Source of the DNA: a virus
Lineage: Duplodnaviria; Caudoviricetes
Length of the DNA: 64,000 bases
IMG/VR virus record: IMGVR_UViG_2563366732_000001
Coordinates: 3,242 to 67,241 of that record
Strand: one strand, 5' to 3'
Shown: piece by piece, positions 8,381 through 34,889 of the stretch
Layout: each line of letters starts with the position of its first letter
Position numbering within the stretch: the stretch's first letter is position 1
Notes under the pieces: generated by a model
Databases searched by the model: none
What the model saw: only the letters and a program-made list of their open reading frames with translations
What the model was told of the DNA's origin: nothing
Made by a program: the position numbers and the translations under genes

Positions 8381-8824
8381 ATGAATTGGATAGAAGTTAA
8401 AACAAAAGATGATATAAAGAATTTATTAGATGTATTTGATTTTTTTCATGATGGGTGTCTAAGAGAAATACACTTATGGAACAGTTATTATATTGGAAGT
8501 GATTTATCAATGGCGGCAGGAGAAGGGACATTAAATGCGAAAGTAATCTTTCAAAGGCAATCTAAAAATCCTTCCGCAATAGAAGTTTGTTTCAGCGAAG
8601 TCCAAAGGATGAACATCGTTGCAACTAACCCTAATTACTGGTATATGATATTAGGTGCGTCATTATTTTATAAAGGAGGCTTATATTACTGGGCAGATGA
8701 AGAACAGTGGAATATTAGTGAACCAAGTAATAGTGAAATAATGTGGATTTCTGCTAAAGGGATAAAATGGCGTGATAAAAGTGAATGGATGAAAGATACG
8801 TTAAGGTATGGTTCAAGAGAATAA
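8381..8824 (+). CDS. Hypothetical accessory protein (FHDGCLRE motif)
   Basis: Intact ORF with RBS GGAGA. Confidence 0.7.
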   Translation: MNWIEVKTKDDIKNLLDVFDFFHDGCLREIHLWNSYYIGSDLSMAAGEGTLNAKVIFQRQSKNPSAIEVCFSEVQRMNIVATNPNYWYMILGASLFYKGGLYYWADEEQWNISEPSNSEIMWISAKGIKWRDKSEWMKDTLRYGSRE

Positions 8825-8896
8825 GTATCTTTAAAGTGTTTCACAGTTTTCTTATAAGACGAACAATTATTTAACAAATAAAGGAGATGTTAATAA

Positions 8897-9262
8897 GTGA
8901 AGATAAAGAAAATATTAACTCGCTTATATGTACATGATATAAATACATCTATAGATTTTTACAAAAAATTATTGAATCAAGATTGTGATTTATTATTTAA
9001 GTATAGTGAGATGAATTTAGACTTAGCACAAATAGGTAACATTTTAATTTTAAGTGGTACTGATGATGCATTAAAACCATTTAAGGATACAAGAGCAACT
9101 TTTTTAGTAGATTCTGTCATTGAATTTAGAGAATTCTTATTAAAGAATGGTGCTGTAATTATTAGAGACTTAAAGAAAGTTCCAACAGGAATGAATTTGA
9201 CTGTGAAACATTTAGATGGCACTATAATTGAATATGTTGAACACAAAAATGTTAATACATAG
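8897..9262 (+). CDS. VOC/glyoxalase-bleomycin resistance family protein
   Basis: ILTRLYVHDI..SIDFYKKLL, ATFLVDSV and HLDGTIIEYVE motifs. Confidence 0.85.
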   Translation: MKIKKILTRLYVHDINTSIDFYKKLLNQDCDLLFKYSEMNLDLAQIGNILILSGTDDALKPFKDTRATFLVDSVIEFREFLLKNGAVIIRDLKKVPTGMNLTVKHLDGTIIEYVEHKNVNT

Positions 9263-9308
9263 TTTTTTGACTTAGCATCACAATTGAAAACTTGAATAAT
9301 TATTTAAA

Positions 9309-9345
9309 ACACCGTATTATTTAAAATGAATTGTACGGTGTTTAT
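9309..9345 (+). terminator. Terminator-like hairpin related to those at 7105 and 33117
   Basis: ACACCGTA...TACGGTGT stem after the VOC gene. Confidence 0.5.
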
Positions 9346-9423
9346 GCGTCGCATTTCAAATATTCTACGTAGTAACTATTAAAACTAACTATACATTTTA
9401 AAGCAACACTTAAATATATTTGA

Positions 9424-9460
9424 AAAAAAATATTAAAAAAATATTAAAAAAATATTAAAA
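9424..9460 (+). repeat. Three tandem AAAAAAATATT units (phased A-tracts) upstream of a -10 box
   Basis: Units at 9424, 9435 and 9446; TATGATAAT at 9491. Confidence 0.75.
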
Positions 9461-9521
9461 TTATTTTAAATATATCTTAATTCATAGTAGTATGATAATA
9501 TCATAGAAAAAGCAAGAGAGT

Positions 9522-9549
9522 AACATTCAGAAATGAGTGTTCTTTTTTT
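9522..9549 (+). terminator. Intrinsic terminator in the leader of the Ig-domain gene
   Basis: AACATTCA-GAAA-TGAGTGTT followed by a T tract; same 20-mer at 33735. Confidence 0.7.
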
Positions 9550-9648
9550 ATTTGTAATTAATTTATTTATTATGGAAATTAAAGTTTATATGTAAAATAT
9601 ACGAAAATAATAAAGAATAAAATAGAAAATATGCAAGGGGGAGCAAAA

Positions 9649-10776
9649 GTGAAAAAACATTTTAAATTAATAGGAGTATTTTTATGTGCATTATTAATAG
9701 GAACTTCATTCATATTTAGTAAAAGTAGTAATAACAAAGTATATGCAGATGATAATTCAGAGGTTGGAACAGCTAATTTAAACAATACAGCTGATAATAG
9801 TGCCAAGGTTGGAGATCAATTAGTACATCCTGAAAAAGGTTGGAAAAGGTATGATGACAGTAATAGCATGATACAATATATAGGTAATGATTGGGTATAT
9901 GATAATATACATGCTAGTGTTTCAAATTATTGTTATAATAAGGGTTCACATATTTCTGGCGACCATTATGGTGTGGCTGATAATTGTGATGGTGATGAAC
10001 AAATTAAATTTAAGTTTACTGGGAGTAAAATCAGAATAATTGCAATAGATACAACAGATAATCAATGGGCAACAAATATAGAAATAAAAATTGATGGTAA
10101 TTCATATACGTATTCTAATAAAATTAAAAGTAGTGGATGGCAAAGCGTTGTTTTTGAAAAAACAGATTTAGAAAATAATATTCATAATGTTATCATTACA
10201 AATAAAACAACTACTCAAATGAATTTTGATGCAGTAGATATAGATGATACAGGAAGTTTAGATGATTCATCAACAGTTATGTCAACAGGAATATCATTAG
10301 ATAAAACATCATTAGATATGAAAACAGGAGATACAAGCAATTTGACAGCAATAGTGGCACCAGATAATTCTACAAATAAAATTGTTAAATGGACTTCAAG
10401 TGATCCTAGTATAGCAACAGTAGATGCAAATGGTAAGATTACGGCAGTGAAAGAAGGATCGGCTACAATTACAGCATCTACACAGGATGGAAGTAATAAA
10501 ACTGCTACTTGTACTGTAAATGTAAAAAATCCTGCTGACGGTAATGGGTTATTAACAGTAACTATGACAGATGGACAACAGAGAACATATGACATAAAAA
10601 TGAGCCAAATCAATGATTTTATAACATGGTATAACAACAGAGCAAACGGACAAGGTAACTTTACTTATTCGTTTAACAAAACTCCAAGTTCGGCAGCATA
10701 TACAAAAAGAACTGAATATTTAGTGTATGATAAAATATCAAATTATGATGTTGATGAATACAAAGCACAAAATTAA
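9649..10776 (+). CDS. Secreted Ig-like (Big_2) domain protein, paralog of 60147..61175
   Basis: Signal peptide; GISLDKTSLDM..GDTSNLTA...VKWTSSD.SIATVDANGK.TAVK.G.ATITA Big_2 domain; GTG at 9649 after GGGGGAG. Confidence 0.85.
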   Translation: MKKHFKLIGVFLCALLIGTSFIFSKSSNNKVYADDNSEVGTANLNNTADNSAKVGDQLVHPEKGWKRYDDSNSMIQYIGNDWVYDNIHASVSNYCYNKGSHISGDHYGVADNCDGDEQIKFKFTGSKIRIIAIDTTDNQWATNIEIKIDGNSYTYSNKIKSSGWQSVVFEKTDLENNIHNVIITNKTTTQMNFDAVDIDDTGSLDDSSTVMSTGISLDKTSLDMKTGDTSNLTAIVAPDNSTNKIVKWTSSDPSIATVDANGKITAVKEGSATITASTQDGSNKTATCTVNVKNPADGNGLLTVTMTDGQQRTYDIKMSQINDFITWYNNRANGQGNFTYSFNKTPSSAAYTKRTEYLVYDKISNYDVDEYKAQN

Positions 10777-10783
10777 TGGTATT

Positions 10784-10814
10784 AGAAGGGCGTTCAGAAA
10801 TGGACGTTCTTTTT
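10784..10814 (+). terminator. Intrinsic terminator
   Basis: AGAAGGGCGTTCA-GAAA-TGGACGTTCT followed by TTTT. Confidence 0.7.
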
Positions 10815-10822
10815 ATATATAA

Positions 10823-10878
10823 ATCTTTGTTTTGGTGTGACGGGCGGTGTGTAAATAACATAATATCAAAATAAGGAT
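10823..10878 (+). ncRNA. Candidate cis-regulatory leader hairpin carrying a 21-nt anti-16S rRNA sequence
   Basis: Core stem 10827-10838/10863-10874 (3 G-U pairs), extendable to 10823-10878 over the SD AAGGA; 24-nt loop; homologous copy at 33831-33880. Confidence 0.6.
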
Positions 10879-10886
10879 GCGATAAT

Positions 10887-11645
10887 ATGATGTTAAAACC
10901 ACCAATTAGTAGAATGGGGGGAAAAAGTAAGTTAAGAAAGACAATAATAAGTATGTTACCTGAGCATATTTGTTATGTAGAATTATTCTTTGGAGCAGGA
11001 TGGGTTTATTTTGGAAAGCAACCTGCAAAGGTTGAGGTTATAAATGATATAGATAAAGAATTAATAAATCTATTCAGAATGATAAAATATCATGCGCCAG
11101 AAGTTGAAAGGATGCTTCAATATGATTTTTCAGGAAGAGATATATTTGAAGAATATAAGAATGAGAGTATAGGAAACCTTACAGAGATAAATAGAGCTGT
11201 AAGGTTTTTATATTTGATAACGCAAAGTTTTGCAAGTAAATGTGGTAATTACGGTTATGGGACAAATACAAAACCAGGACAGCAAATATTTTATACTGAG
11301 ACACTAAAAAACTTGAAAGAGAGGTTGCGTAATACTTATGTTGAAAACCTAAGCTTTGAAAAAATAATAGATAAGTATGATAGGGAATATACATGCTTCT
11401 TTGCAGATCCGCCTTACTTTGAAACAGCAGGTTATGCTAATGACTTTGGGGAGAAAGAACATTTGTTACTTAGAAATAAGTTAAGCAATATCAAAGGCAA
11501 ATTTATTTTAACAATAAATGACCACGAAAAAGTAAGAGAGTGGTACAAGGATTTTAATATAAAAGAAGTTCAAGTAAATTATTCAGTATCAAGAGAAAAG
11601 AAGGCTAGAGGCAAGTATAAGGAATTGATTGTAACTAATTATTAG
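10887..11645 (+). CDS. DNA adenine methyltransferase (D12/Dam class), orphan
   Basis: RMGGKSKL, YVELFFGAG, EVINDID and FFADPPY motifs. Confidence 0.95.
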   Translation: MMLKPPISRMGGKSKLRKTIISMLPEHICYVELFFGAGWVYFGKQPAKVEVINDIDKELINLFRMIKYHAPEVERMLQYDFSGRDIFEEYKNESIGNLTEINRAVRFLYLITQSFASKCGNYGYGTNTKPGQQIFYTETLKNLKERLRNTYVENLSFEKIIDKYDREYTCFFADPPYFETAGYANDFGEKEHLLLRNKLSNIKGKFILTINDHEKVREWYKDFNIKEVQVNYSVSREKKARGKYKELIVTNY

Positions 11646-11809
11646 TTGTAACAATATTTATATACAACTGTAACATAACACTTGAATATGGGATGAATTA
11701 AGGTTAATATATAGATGTAGAAAGATTCCCCCTTTTTATATCTAAAAGCATTTGGTTAATTCCAAGTGCTATTTTTATGCAAAAATATAATGATTCAGAG
11801 GTGAGAAAT

Positions 11810-11972
11810 GTGAGAATAGGACAAATATTAAAAGGGAAGCGAACAAAAGAATTTAAAAACTTAAGAACTATAATGCTGAGTATCTCCTTTTTCACGAGAT
11901 TCAGGAATTAATGAAACATAGGCGTTATATTATAGGTATGGTAAAGGTGGAACTTTTAGGCAAATGAGATAA
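11810..11972 (+). pseudogene. Frameshifted small phage ORF
   Basis: RBS GAGGTG; pieces in three frames (MRIGQILKGKRTKEF / ELMKHRRY / GKGGTFRQMR*) recall the C-terminus of 34671..34889 (NGAIRQRR). Confidence 0.35.
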
Positions 11973-11986
11973 ATAATCTAGTAAAA

Positions 11987-12014
11987 GAAGGAATTTAGGA
12001 TTGGGTGTAGAAAT
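11987..12014 (+). promoter_or_regulatory. SigH-like promoter candidate
   Basis: AAGGAATTT-N10-GTAGAAAT; the same geometry occurs at 34889-34915. Confidence 0.45.
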
Positions 12015-12040
12015 ATGCTGAAGAAGGGTGGTTGCTTTTT

Positions 12041-12319
12041 ATGAAGATTACTTTAGTACAAGAAGTTCAATTAAAAAATTTGAAAAATGGGTACAAGGAG
12101 ATAAGGAAGACATTTGATTCAAATATAATGCCACATGAAGGCGATTTTGTAACAGATTCAGTATGGCAAGATTCTTATGAATATAGAGTAAGGGAAATTG
12201 TTATAAATTACGAAGAAAATAATGTACATGTACTCTTAGAACCAGTAATATTAGAAACAAATAATAATGAAGCATTAAATGAATACTACGAAATGGTAAA
12301 ATTACATAATTGGGAATAG
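12041..12319 (+). CDS. Hypothetical accessory protein
   Basis: ATG at 12041 after AGGGTGG; followed by a terminator-like hairpin at ~12333-12369. Confidence 0.65.
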   Translation: MKITLVQEVQLKNLKNGYKEIRKTFDSNIMPHEGDFVTDSVWQDSYEYRVREIVINYEENNVHVLLEPVILETNNNEALNEYYEMVKLHNWE

Positions 12320-12415
12320 TAATTGAAAAATAAGAGAGCTCTCTATTAACTTAATAGGGTTCTTTTTTTATGTAACAAAACAAAACGAATAACCAACTAG
12401 GGCAGGTGAGGTGAT

Positions 12416-13168
12416 GTGCCAAGACAAAGGAGTCCAAATAGAGATAAGGCATTTCAAATTTATAAGGAACATAATGGAAATATTAATAATAGGGAAATTG
12501 CAAAGATTTTAGATATCCCAGAGAAAACAGTGGGAGGATGGAAATGCAAGGATAAATGGCAAGATAAATTGAATGGAGTACTCCAAAAGGAAAATTCAAA
12601 TAATACGGAGTACTCTAAACGTAAAAAAGGTGGTCAACCCAAAAATAAAAATTCAAAAGGTCATGAGGTTAGCGTGCCAAGAGGTAATAAAAACGCTGAA
12701 ACTCATGGCTTTTTTTCTAAGATTTTTCCACCCGAAACAATAGATATAGTTGAGGATATTATGATTAAAGATTCCTTGGATATGCTTTGGGAAAATATTA
12801 TAATCCAATATACAGCCATAGCAAGATCACAAAGAATTATGAATGTTAAAAATCAAGATGATTTAACTAAGGAACTTAAAAGGGAAAAAGAATCAAGTGG
12901 TGATGCATCTGACAGCTGGGAGAAAGAATATGAACTACAATTTGCTTGGGATAAGCAAGCAACATTTTTACAGGCACAGAGTAGAGCAATGTCAGAATTA
13001 AGAAATCTTATTAAGCAGTATGATGAAACACTTCATGCTAAATGGGAGCTTGCTACCGAAGAGCAAAAACTAAGGATTGAGAAGTTAAAGCTTGATATAG
13101 AAAAAGTGAAATCGCCCGAGAGTAATAAACCAATAGAAGTAGTTATAAAGCGAAAGAGTGAGGTATAA
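12416..13168 (+). CDS. Phage terminase small subunit (YqaS/XtmA-like)
   Basis: MPRQRSPNRDKAFQIY...W..KDKW N-terminal HTH; GGQPKNKN...GNKNAETHGFFSK; AWDKQATFL.AQSRAM. Confidence 0.9.
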   Translation: MPRQRSPNRDKAFQIYKEHNGNINNREIAKILDIPEKTVGGWKCKDKWQDKLNGVLQKENSNNTEYSKRKKGGQPKNKNSKGHEVSVPRGNKNAETHGFFSKIFPPETIDIVEDIMIKDSLDMLWENIIIQYTAIARSQRIMNVKNQDDLTKELKREKESSGDASDSWEKEYELQFAWDKQATFLQAQSRAMSELRNLIKQYDETLHAKWELATEEQKLRIEKLKLDIEKVKSPESNKPIEVVIKRKSEV

Positions 13169-13317
13169 AATGCATATTTGTATAAAATATCATGAATAAA
13201 TATTAAGAATATACTTGAAATTTGTATTATTATTCATATAATAGTGCGAAAATCGTATCTTTAGTGCATAAAATGTGCGCTTATTACGGGAAATAAAAAT
13301 TTGACGCAATAAATGGT

Positions 13318-13349
13318 AAAAAAAGAGACTTATTGATAAGTCTCTTTTT
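13318..13349. terminator. Bidirectional intrinsic terminator
   Basis: AAAAGAGACTTA-TTGA-TAAGTCTCTTTT perfect stem with A and T flanks. Confidence 0.8.
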
Positions 13350-13430
13350 ATGAATAATACGTCGTATCTATATGGTTATTTCAAAAAAATCGCTACAGAG
13401 CATAGAACGTTTATAACATATTCCAATAAG

Positions 13431-13772
13431 CTATAAACGATTTTCCCCACCCCAAGTACACATCATATCTAAAATAGGTATGAGTGATTTCCCACGCTCT
13501 GACAAACCATATTCAACTTTTGGTGGAATTTGAGGATATTCTTTTCTTATTATTAATTGGTCATTTGCCATTTCTTTAAGCGTTTTACTTAAAGTTTTAA
13601 ATGATATTGTGCCAATAGAACGTTGTAGTTCATTAAATCTCATAACTGACTTACATCCAGCAAGCCAATACATGATAATCATTTTATATTTACCGTTTAT
13701 AAGTGATAATGTATATCCAAAATCAGTATCATTTAAATTTACACCAGTTTGACTGCAGTTCTCGATGGACAT
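13431..13772 (-). CDS. HxlR-family winged-helix transcriptional regulator
   Basis: GKYKMII.YWL...RFNELQR...ISFKTLSKTLKEM...YPQIPPKVEYGLSERGKSL. Confidence 0.92.
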   Translation of the reverse strand: MSIENCSQTGVNLNDTDFGYTLSLINGKYKMIIMYWLAGCKSVMRFNELQRSIGTISFKTLSKTLKEMANDQLIIRKEYPQIPPKVEYGLSERGKSLIPILDMMCTWGGENRL

Positions 13773-32517: not shown

Positions 32518-33093
32518 TTGAAAACTGATATGAGCAATCCAACGCAAGGTATACATCCAATGATGGGAATGGAAGGTATGTGCCCAATGATGATGGAAGG
32601 TATGTATCCAATGATGATGGAAGGTATGTGTCCAATGATGATGGAAGGTATGTATCCAATGATGATGCACGGTATGCATCCTATGATGGATATGCAGAAC
32701 ATGAGCCCTATGATGGATATGCAATTTCCTATACCAATGTTAGTAAAATTGGAACAGATTTCGCCTAATCAAATTCAAATTAGCTATGATAGAGATGTTG
32801 ATGTAATGTTAGGAATGAAGTCAACTAATTACTGGGTCAAGGATATAATGAATGCTATCCCCAGGGGTATAGCTACTCTTGGTAGAAATGATAATGTGAA
32901 TTCTGGAAATTCACTTACAGATAATATGGTCAGAATAGATCCCAAAAATGGCTCAGCAAAAACATTTATTTTAACTTTCAATAGAACTATTCCTAGCGGA
33001 GCAGAATATATGCTTATAATTTGTTATGTAACAGTTAAAGGAGCACCTCCTTACAGCGGAGCTAATGGAATGGCTAATTTTGTTGGTAAATAA
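32518..33093 (+). CDS. Met-rich repeat protein with a C-terminal Ig-like domain (accessory cassette gene)
   Basis: (MEGM[C/Y]PMM)n N-terminus; beta-rich C-terminus QIQISYDRDVD...TFILTF...YMLIICYV. Confidence 0.75.
   Translation: MKTDMSNPTQGIHPMMGMEGMCPMMMEGMYPMMMEGMCPMMMEGMYPMMMHGMHPMMDMQNMSPMMDMQFPIPMLVKLEQISPNQIQISYDRDVDVMLGMKSTNYWVKDIMNAIPRGIATLGRNDNVNSGNSLTDNMVRIDPKNGSAKTFILTFNRTIPSGAEYMLIICYVTVKGAPPYSGANGMANFVGK
32569..32688 (+). repeat. 24-bp coding tandem repeat, five units
   Basis: ATGGAAGGTATGT(G/A)(C/T)CCAATGATG at 32569, 32593, 32617 and 32641; degenerate unit at 32665. Confidence 0.9.
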
Positions 33094-33776: not shown

Positions 33777-33800
33777 TTATTCACAACATATTGTGGATAG
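33777..33800. promoter_or_regulatory. Inverted pair of DnaA-box-like 9-mers
   Basis: TTATTCACA (fits TTWTNCACA), 6-bp spacer, then TGTGGATAG (reverse complement of CTATCCACA). Confidence 0.5.
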
Positions 33801-33830
33801 TGTATATAAGTAATGCTATATATTGTATTA

Positions 33831-33885
33831 CTTGCTTTGATATGACGGGCGGTGTGTAAACAACCTAATATCAAAACAAGGGGAG
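33831..33885 (+). ncRNA. Second copy of the methylase leader hairpin, with a 16-nt anti-16S sequence
   Basis: Stem 33831-33843/33868-33880 (12 of 13 pairs); 24-nt loop; SD AAGGGGAG overlaps the 3' arm. Confidence 0.6.
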
Positions 33886-33893
33886 ATGCACAA

Positions 33894-34658
33894 ATGATAA
33901 AAATGTTAAAACCACCTATTAGTAGAATGGGAGGAAAAAGCAAGTTAAGAAAGACAATAATAAGTATGTTACCTGAGCATGTTTGTTATGTAGAATTATT
34001 CTTTGGAGCAGGATGGGTGTATTTTGGTAAGGAGCCTGCAAAGGTCGAAGTTATAAATGATATAGATAAAGAGTTAATAAATCTATTCAGAATGATAAAA
34101 TATCATGCACCAGAAGTTGAAAGAATGCTTCAATATGATTTTTCAGGAAGGGATATATTTGAGGAATACAAGAATGAGTGCGTAGGGAACCTTACAGAGA
34201 TAAATAGATCTGTAAGGTTTTTATATTTAGTAACTCAAAGTTTTGCAAGTAAAGGTGGTAATTATGGTTATGGGACAAATACAAAACCTGGACAGCAGAT
34301 ATTTTATATTGAAGCACTAAAAGATTTGAAAGAGAGGCTGAGTAATACTTATGTTGAAAATTTAACCTTTGAAAAAGTAATAGATAAGTATGACAGGGAA
34401 TATACTTGTTTCTTTGCAGATCCGCCGTATTTTGAAACAGCAGGTTATGGCAATAAATTTGGAGAGAAAGAACATCTGTTACTTAGAGATAAGTTGAGCA
34501 ATATCAAAGGTAAATTTATATTAACAATAAATGACCATGAAAAAGTAAGGCAATGGTATAAGGATTTTAATATCAAGGAAGTTGAAGTGAATTATTCTAT
34601 TTCTAGAGAACAGAAGGCTAGAGGTAAGTATAAAGAACTTATTATAAAAAACTATTAA
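33894..34658 (+). CDS. DNA adenine methyltransferase (D12/Dam class), close paralog of 10887..11645
   Basis: Same motifs (RMGGKSKL, FFADPPY); near-identical protein. Confidence 0.95.
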   Translation: MIKMLKPPISRMGGKSKLRKTIISMLPEHVCYVELFFGAGWVYFGKEPAKVEVINDIDKELINLFRMIKYHAPEVERMLQYDFSGRDIFEEYKNECVGNLTEINRSVRFLYLVTQSFASKGGNYGYGTNTKPGQQIFYIEALKDLKERLSNTYVENLTFEKVIDKYDREYTCFFADPPYFETAGYGNKFGEKEHLLLRDKLSNIKGKFILTINDHEKVRQWYKDFNIKEVEVNYSISREQKARGKYKELIIKNY

Positions 34659-34670
34659 GAAGGTGGGAAT

Positions 34671-34889
34671 GTGTTAAGTATCTATACGAGTTATAAATGT
34701 AAGACATGCAGTAAAGAGTTTGTATTGCTAAGTGAAGATGTTGAGTTAATGAGTAAGGATAGATACTTAACTTGTCCTTACTGTAATAGCAAAAGAATAG
34801 TAGTTGATAAGGTAGAAGACAGTGTCAAAGAGTGTATGAAAGAAAGAAGTTATAAGAAAATAAATGGAGCAATTAGACAAAGAAGATAA
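34671..34889 (+). CDS. Small zinc-ribbon phage protein
   Basis: YKCKTC...LTCPYCNS. Confidence 0.75.
   Translation: MLSIYTSYKCKTCSKEFVLLSEDVELMSKDRYLTCPYCNSKRIVVDKVEDSVKECMKERSYKKINGAIRQRR

Follow-up and report, generated by a model that had tools for sequence, protein, structure and literature searches.

A conserved hairpin leader with complementarity to the decoding-site strand of 16S rRNA upstream of DNA methylase genes in Clostridia prophages

The methylase leader and its surroundings

The window, by which we mean the whole stretch of 64,000 nt of viral DNA that was analysed, contains a gene for a D12-class methylase (PF02086, E = 3e-27) that is preceded by a hairpin leader (Table 1). A first-pass annotation had described this leader as a hairpin that displays a complement of the 16S rRNA decoding site and hides the ribosome-binding site of the methylase, and the structural parts of this description are correct. 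The 21-nt complement was read directly and checked against E. coli rrsH, and it is exact, with 6 nt in the 5' arm and 15 nt in the loop. The stem, P1, has the 12-bp core that was claimed (10827-38/10863-74, with 3 G-U pairs) and can be extended to 16 bp, with 4 G-U pairs, when 10823-10838 pairs with 10863-10878. The Shine-Dalgarno (SD) sequence falls inside the 3' arm and is in this way hidden in the hairpin. The match to 16S rRNA ends abruptly, with mismatches at 10832 and 10854, and there is no homology to rDNA beyond 21-24 nt. RNAfold predicts the hairpin, and the 125-nt region around it has a z score of -4.6 relative to shuffled sequences. The hairpin alone is predicted at -15.5 kcal/mol and a duplex of the leader with 16S nt 1385-1420 at about -49 to -51 kcal/mol.

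The terminator-like structure of the upstream gene lies close to the leader, and in many relatives its U-tract abuts the 5' arm of the leader stem. Two contigs from wetland metatranscriptomes map to 10600-10784 only, which is the end of this upstream gene; neither the leader nor the methylase is covered, a result that speaks neither for nor against them. The ribosome-binding site of the methylase (10873-10886) is an extended SD of the AAGGA-N-GUGAU type, and most relatives have the same one regardless of whether they carry the motif. This extended SD is complementary to 16S nt ~1531-1541 and spans nt 1532-1534, which belong to the alternative helix of the inactive 30S subunit. The setting of the first copy (8381-13772) resembles a prophage remnant, with a Big_2 protein, the methylase, small open reading frames (ORFs) and a small terminase, which is followed on the minus strand by a regulator of the HxlR type that looks host-like.

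The genome contains more copies of the leader. Scanning it with a covariance model gave six, four strong and two degenerate. Two of the strong copies lie elsewhere in the genome, carry the perfect 21-mer as well and stand upstream of C5-cytosine methylases (PF00145). A second leader in the window precedes a paralogue of the first methylase, and in its stem two of the G-U pairs of the first copy are replaced by A-U pairs. The prophage that holds this second copy is apparently complete and has its large terminase, portal and tail genes at ~38-60 kb. Directly 3' of the second methylase there is a 72-aa zinc-ribbon ORF (CxxC...CxxC; 34671-34889, plus strand) with a weak match to Lar-like restriction alleviation proteins and a weak match to PF09723. 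On the other side, the ORF at 32518-33093 (plus strand) opens with a Met/Pro/Gly-rich tandem repeat (MMMEGM-like units) and has no PHROG match. Between the two, at 33780-33830, the 7-nt word ATATTGT is directly repeated ~30 nt apart just upstream of one type of leader, and the same repeat is found upstream of the leader in L166, L167, L172, L178 and L180. An identical leader, together with the first four codons (MIKM), occurs joined to methylases of either type, D12 or C5, which suggests a mobile module of promoter, leader and start codon region that has been fused to both methylase types. Truncated methylases also occur behind intact leaders, such as a C5 methylase of 192 aa in the same genome (C20:38869-41937, L167) and a D12 ORF of 13 aa (G003, L178), and from these it appears that the leader can outlast its own gene.

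Table 1. Leader and neighbouring features in the window, with the basis on which each was assigned
Feature	Position	Strand	Basis
Terminator-like hairpin and U-tract at the 3' end of a Big_2-domain gene	10784..10815	+	RNAfold
P1 5' arm, 16 nt, U-rich; final 6 nt within the 16S complement	10823..10838	+	RNAfold, covariation
21-nt perfect complement of 16S 1393-1413 (end of h28 3' strand, linker, h44 5' strand)	10833..10853	+	
P1 loop, 24 nt	10839..10862	+	RNAfold
8-nt core GGUGUGUA, complement of 16S 1393-1400	10846..10853	+	Comparison of leaders
Site of second loop block, degenerate in the first copy	10854..10862	+	Comparison of leaders
P1 3' arm, A-rich; SD at 10873-10877	10863..10878	+	RNAfold, covariation
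D12-class N6-adenine DNA methyltransferase, 252 aa, ATG at 10887	10887..11645	+	PF02086
Second leader hairpin; arms 33831-33843 / 33868-33880, loop 33844-33867	33831..33880	+	
16-nt complement of 16S 1393-1408, second copy	33843..33858	+	
Second D12-class methyltransferase, paralogue of the first	33894..34658	+	

A leader family with a covarying stem

About 47 distinct sequences of this leader occur in prophages of Clostridia, and the named hosts are Clostridium, Hathewaya, Tissierella, Zhenhengia, Holtiella and their relatives. Among 80 viral contigs that encode a D12 methylase of 72-87% identity, 26 have the leader; the remaining contigs have different leaders, often with a LexA-type box that overlaps the promoter. 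When the upstream regions of homologous methylases were compared, as the first-pass annotation had proposed, the hairpin was conserved in the family, but many homologous methylases have quite different leaders. A pattern scan that was blind to the downstream gene found that the leader precedes methylases of both classes, D12 and C5. Over all searches, seven instances stand before C5 methylases. A covariance model trained on the first relatives was then used for whole-genome scans. Not counting the genome of the window itself, the leader was present in 7/100 relatives and in 8/150 members of the family and in 0/150 genomes from other families of the class, for which 33 candidates per genome were scored. 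With one exception, the matches in these unbiased scans were immediately followed by a methylase gene or by what is left of one, and no free-standing copies of the leader were seen. A search of 2.9 million viral contigs for the exact 21-mer gave four occurrences, of which three belong to this leader and one to the end of a genuine 16S gene. The leader is absent from the cultured phages of the collection, where phiSM101 has the methylase without it. A comparison with Rfam, also proposed in the first-pass annotation, was run at permissive E-values, and no Rfam 15 family matches the leader in 20 instances (window and 18 relatives). Some matches of the pattern scan were treated as chance hits, either because they are coding-like sequence (L091, L094, L136 and similar ones) or because no methylase lies downstream (L087, L095, L099).

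Two other features of these loci deserve a description of their own. In many of the homologous phage methylases that lack the hairpin, a Firmicute LexA-type box (CGAAC-N4-GTTCG-like) lies over the -35/-10 promoter, ~60-100 nt upstream of the methylase start (L039, L042, L047, L051, L063, L066, L068, L072 and others). In these phages the methylase looks SOS-controlled, judging from the box. Phage-borne tRNA genes are found ~200 nt upstream of the leader in L026 (1187-1257) and L041 (1155-1243). Homologues of the zinc-ribbon ORF follow the methylase at 12 of 40 motif-bearing loci and at 1 of 96 others. This ORF is missing beside the first copy and at most loci, and as it is present at a subset of loci only, we rejected it as an obligatory partner of the leader.

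The P1 stem is a real RNA stem of the plus strand, based on its G-U pairs, the covariance-model scores and its covariation. Over 34 aligned leaders, 87% of the cells are paired, compared with 77% in shuffled sequences and 47-60% when the register is slid, and 10 of the 16 P1 pairs have been altered on both sides with compensation. The covariance model scores 79-86 bits on the plus strand and ~19 bits on the minus strand. RNAalifold returned no consensus structure for the 34-sequence alignment, in which the stems are A-U rich and gaps are frequent, and the support for P1 is therefore given as pair counts. Across the relatives the stem always ends in or at the SD. P1 is the only helix supported by covariation; no pseudoknot or multi-helix pocket was found, and an inner helix of 3-6 bp, with an invariant 3' side, is possible in one sub-family.

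The loop is built from two conserved blocks. The core, GGUGUGUA, is present in most leaders, with near-invariance limited to its first 5 nt (GGUGU). The second block, with the consensus UUAACCCAA, follows at a distance of 1-12 nt, and an ACG after the 5' arm is conserved as well. Three sub-families can be told apart by the flanks of the core. The first carries the long complement of 16S rRNA, in the second three nucleotides are swapped for a short segment that is able to pair with the second block, and in the third the core adjoins the stem or lies partly inside it. The loop blocks have been conserved while the methylases are only 72-87% identical and the flanks, spacers and stems have changed, which indicates purifying selection on the loop.

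Extent and position of the 16S rRNA complementarity

As the assembly contains no more than ~100 nt from the 5' ends of the host's 16S rRNA genes, E. coli rrsH was used as a proxy, and for each of 47 leaders the longest exact complement to 16S nt 1380-1420 was determined. The longest run is 21 nt in 7 leaders, 14-20 nt in another 7, 11-12 nt in 4, 8-10 nt in 25 and 6-7 nt in 4, and in every leader this complement of 6-21 nt falls at 16S nt 1390-1413. Decoy controls, in which the same leaders were compared with the sense, reversed or complemented 16S sequence, gave means of 7.5-7.9 and maxima of 9-12, and 27 methylase leaders without the motif had a mean of 7.9 against the true 16S complement. 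The long matches are thus far above chance, and the short ones are ordinary in length yet lie at a constant site. Because runs of up to 10 nt have the background length of a blind search, it is only their constant position that argues for 16S rRNA in those leaders. The prediction that the loop would track 16S complementarity across homologues was borne out by the position of the match in all relatives, but less so by its length, since the hairpin is kept with runs of 8-10 nt in 25/47 and of 6-7 nt in 4/47. This amounts to half of the outcome that the first-pass annotation had named as refuting its reading. As the 16S target is universally conserved, covariation between leader and target cannot serve as a test.

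The first-pass annotation had also put the probability of a chance match at ~4e-5 for one window. This arithmetic is right, but across ~250,000 windows it would give ~10 chance matches. Chance can be excluded because there is a second copy, because the genome contains two more 21-mers and because there are dozens of diverged relatives.

The complement does not grow in the same direction in all leaders. It extends to nt 1413 in one sub-family and to nt 1390-1392 in another, and in L040 it extends both ways (1391-1402). Some of the changes relative to 16S rRNA keep a wobble pair, such as C-to-U opposite G1405 and G1401, and A-to-G opposite U1393, the last with complementary flanks retained in L200 and L215. 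Others, in several lineages, are disruptive, for example a G-to-A in the 5' arm that makes the hairpin stronger and the pairing with 16S rRNA weaker. In the main sub-family, 4-7 nt of the 5' arm are complementary to 16S rRNA, and the Gs of this arm, which form only G-U pairs with the 3' arm, could form G-C pairs with 16S rRNA. A complement that reaches into the stem is absent in the inner-helix sub-family and partial in the third sub-family. The toehold-switch geometry that was suggested for the first copy, with a complement continuing from the loop into the 5' arm, consequently applies to the main sub-family but not to the family as a whole.

The second block UUAACCCAA is complementary to 16S nt 1085-1093, in helix 36. 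In the inner-helix sub-family (group B), a U-rich 9-mer is complementary to 16S nt 1495-1503; this match was noticed post hoc, with ~0.45 such matches expected per leader against the whole 16S rRNA, and we take it as a hint only. None of the conserved loop blocks has a complement in 23S or 5S rRNA. The window contains no sense copy of the 21-mer at up to 3 mismatches, neither the window nor the assembled genome offers another RNA target for the 21-mer, and the genome has no site with complements of both loop blocks.

Candidate partners of the loop and comparison with known systems

Work on the 30S subunit makes it possible to place these complements. Conserved alternate folds have been described for two regions of 16S rRNA, h36 and h28/h44, also in C. 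difficile; the two regions are close neighbours in the neck and differ between inactive and active 30S (PMC4438973). Protein S5 binds the junction of h1, h2, h28, h36 and h44 (PMC3996153). In the inactive 30S, nt 921-925 part from nt 1391-1397 and the top of h44 undocks, and immature 30S subunits in cells take this inactive state, which was also seen in S. aureus (PMC11182017). Substitution at nt 1393 is tolerated (PMC11182017). Since inactive or immature subunits leave nt 1391-1397 and the top of h44 unpaired, a trigger that depends on the state of the ribosome is physically reasonable. The first-pass annotation had named ribosome state or rRNA damage as the signal sensed, and while the former finds this backing (PMC11182017), damaged or fragmented rRNA is without support.

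Based on these data, we propose that the element is a conserved cis-regulatory leader RNA in which the loop pairs with an exposed strand of 16S rRNA, opens the stem and frees the SD. We give this reading a probability of about 0.45. Pairing with 16S rRNA is ranked first because the core complements the strand that is freed and the second block complements the neighbouring labile helix. As P1 locks the SD in its 3' arm, the default state is predicted to be one of low translation, with the loop held single-stranded and displaying the complement of 16S rRNA around nt 1391-1413. Where 30S subunits are free, inactive or immature, the 3' strand of h28 (1391-1397) would be without a partner and the top of h44 undocked, and the loop could pair with the exposed h28 strand. 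In the main sub-family, the duplex would then grow into the 5' arm of P1 and displace its weaker, G-U-containing pairing with the 3' arm, after which the remaining A-U rich stem would fall apart, the SD would be free and the methylase would be made. The difference between -15.5 kcal/mol for the hairpin and about -50 kcal/mol for the duplex with 16S rRNA means that opening of the stem is energetically allowed. Expression of the methylase would in this way follow the pool of non-translating or immature small subunits, a pool that is expected to stay low while a lysogen is growing and to rise with the collapse of host translation in the lytic phase.

We infer both the direction of control, activation and not trapping, and the physiological trigger. 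Several points speak against parts of this proposal. Pairing with nt 1393-1400 would occupy the P-site strand and would have to be released before initiation on the same subunit, so the interaction between leader and 16S rRNA could equally be a trap. Pairing of the second block with h36 would require melting of the h36 stem. Moreover, sensing of the ribosome state alone does not explain why the leader is restricted to DNA methylase genes, a restriction that would follow more naturally from a SAM-type ligand or a phage regulator.

The main rival explanation, which we consider less probable but still serious, is that the loop binds a protein or a small molecule that stabilises or opens the SD-sequestering stem, so that the likeness to 16S rRNA would reflect the origin of the loop and not its partner. 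The partner might be a translational activator from the phage, similar to Com of Mu, or an RNA-binding protein of the host, or else SAM or SAH in the manner of a riboswitch. The leader tracks two unrelated families of SAM-dependent methylases, D12 and C5, as is typical of regulators specific for a gene function, and nucleotides of the loop outside the 16S core (the ACG and the second block) are conserved. The short inner helix that one sub-family can form, and the enrichment of the zinc-ribbon ORF at motif-bearing loci, which recalls Com and mom, point the same way. What a protein or ligand leaves unexplained is that 14 leaders have kept 14-21 nt of perfect antisense to 16S rRNA although their flanks and spacers diverged, that the complement is extended in directions specific to each sub-family, and that the second block matches h36. 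A single covarying helix, with neither a pseudoknot nor a multi-helix pocket, and the absence of any matching Rfam family also argue against it, and the zinc-ribbon ORF, besides missing at most loci, is weakly Lar-like, i.e., anti-restriction. It is improbable, in our estimate, that the hairpin is simply a constitutive translational attenuator whose loop is a partnerless relic of captured rDNA. Sequestration of the SD would by itself lower translation, in many lineages the complement has shrunk to 8-10 nt, and the first copy, with its degenerate second block, lies in a prophage remnant; against this, the loop blocks were conserved while flanks, spacers and stems changed, and homology to rDNA does not go past 21-24 nt. 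The related suggestion of the first-pass annotation, an rDNA or attachment-site relic, is not supported, given this same lack of homology past 21 nt, the stop of the match at 10832/10854, the covariation of the stems and the fact that in many phages the leader has methylase and terminase genes as neighbours.

The perfect 21-nt complement of an essential and universally conserved site, on a strand that is accessible in immature 30S subunits (PMC11182017), also brings to mind an action in trans, in which the leader would be an antisense RNA to the decoding-site strand that blocks maturation or function of the 30S subunit during phage growth. We regard this as quite improbable, as every leader is attached to a methylase SD, the stem covaries with the SD region, free-standing copies were not found, and the phage needs functional ribosomes late in infection. 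The inverted repeat near a small terminase gene could finally be a site in the DNA itself, such as an operator, a promoter, a pac site or an attachment relic, with a sequence partly in common with the 16S gene. However, the stem sequence varies while pairing is kept, with G-U pairs that exist only in the plus-strand RNA, the spacing between the loop blocks ranges over 1-12 nt, and the 16S homology ends abruptly. A promoter-like match at 10837-10864 is at background (3 in 10650-10950 versus a shuffle mean of 2.0), and the second copy has none. The strand-specific covariation largely refutes a function at the DNA level, and we hold it to be very improbable.

Pairing of the loop with 16S rRNA can be taken one step further, although we do so tentatively and think the extended version unlikely to hold in full. 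The leader may naturally sense which conformational or maturation state the small subunit is in, with the loop as a multi-part antisense probe of the neck switch of inactive or immature 30S, so that the methylase would be licensed by free or unfinished subunits. The targets of such a probe would be the h28 3' strand with the h44 5' strand (1391-1413) and h36 (1085-1093), and in one sub-family perhaps the 3' strand of h44 (1495-1503). As C1402, C1407 and U1498 lie in these targets, the sensor might also respond to subunits that are not yet methylated. On this extended version, the leader would be the first known mRNA that is switched by rRNA pairing at the decoding site.

The inactive 30S is known from work in vitro and from probing inside cells, and we know of no regulatory use of it. 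If the loop pairs with 16S rRNA, bacteria and phages would have a form of translational control by mRNA-rRNA pairing away from the anti-SD. It would act at the decoding-site strand and would then be a ready-made natural probe of inactive or immature 30S subunits, and an indication of how temperate phages silence potentially harmful DNA methylases in lysogens. Even with a protein or a ligand as the partner, the leader is well defined and widespread and links two unrelated methylase families.

A literature search for rRNA-complementary leaders found nothing relevant. The D12-methyl RNA motif, which Weinberg et al. reportedly described in 2017, is said to be a candidate cis-regulatory RNA upstream of D12-class DNA methyltransferase genes; neither a link to 16S rRNA nor a tested function is known for it, and a literature search under its name did not retrieve it. 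The two may be the same element, as both stand upstream of D12-class genes, with seven instances of the present leader that precede C5 methylases instead. In phage Mu, the ribosome-binding site of the modification gene mom is buried in a hairpin that is opened by the zinc-finger protein Com. Common to both systems would be a phage DNA-modification gene with its ribosome-binding site in a hairpin that needs a factor in trans, as is proposed here, but our leader shows no sign of a protein partner common to all loci, and its loop suggests that the partner is an RNA. In mRNAs activated by small RNAs and in synthetic toehold switches, an RNA acting in trans first binds an unpaired region and from there opens up the SD-sequestering stem by invasion. 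Here, in contrast, the proposed trigger is rRNA, the toehold is a loop and not a 5' tail, and only one leader sub-family has the geometry for invasion of the stem.

Elements of mRNAs that pair with small-subunit rRNA and so control initiation are known from the SD/anti-SD interaction and from loop IIId of HCV-type IRESs with 18S rRNA. The target of our leader is instead the decoding-site strand of h28/h44, and possibly h36, rather than the 3' tail or an expansion segment, and the complement reaches up to 21 nt. To our knowledge, there is no bacterial precedent for an mRNA that pairs with the decoding-site strand; the 'downstream box', which was thought to pair with 16S nt 1469-1483, is an idea that was not upheld. 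Leaders related to rRNA also occur in front of methyltransferase genes in ermC autoregulation and in the 23S-methyl motif, where they mimic the rRNA substrate of an rRNA methylase, whereas the leader of the prophages is a complement of rRNA and stands before DNA methylases. The leader itself is probably of a known type, and it is 16S rRNA as its partner that would be new.
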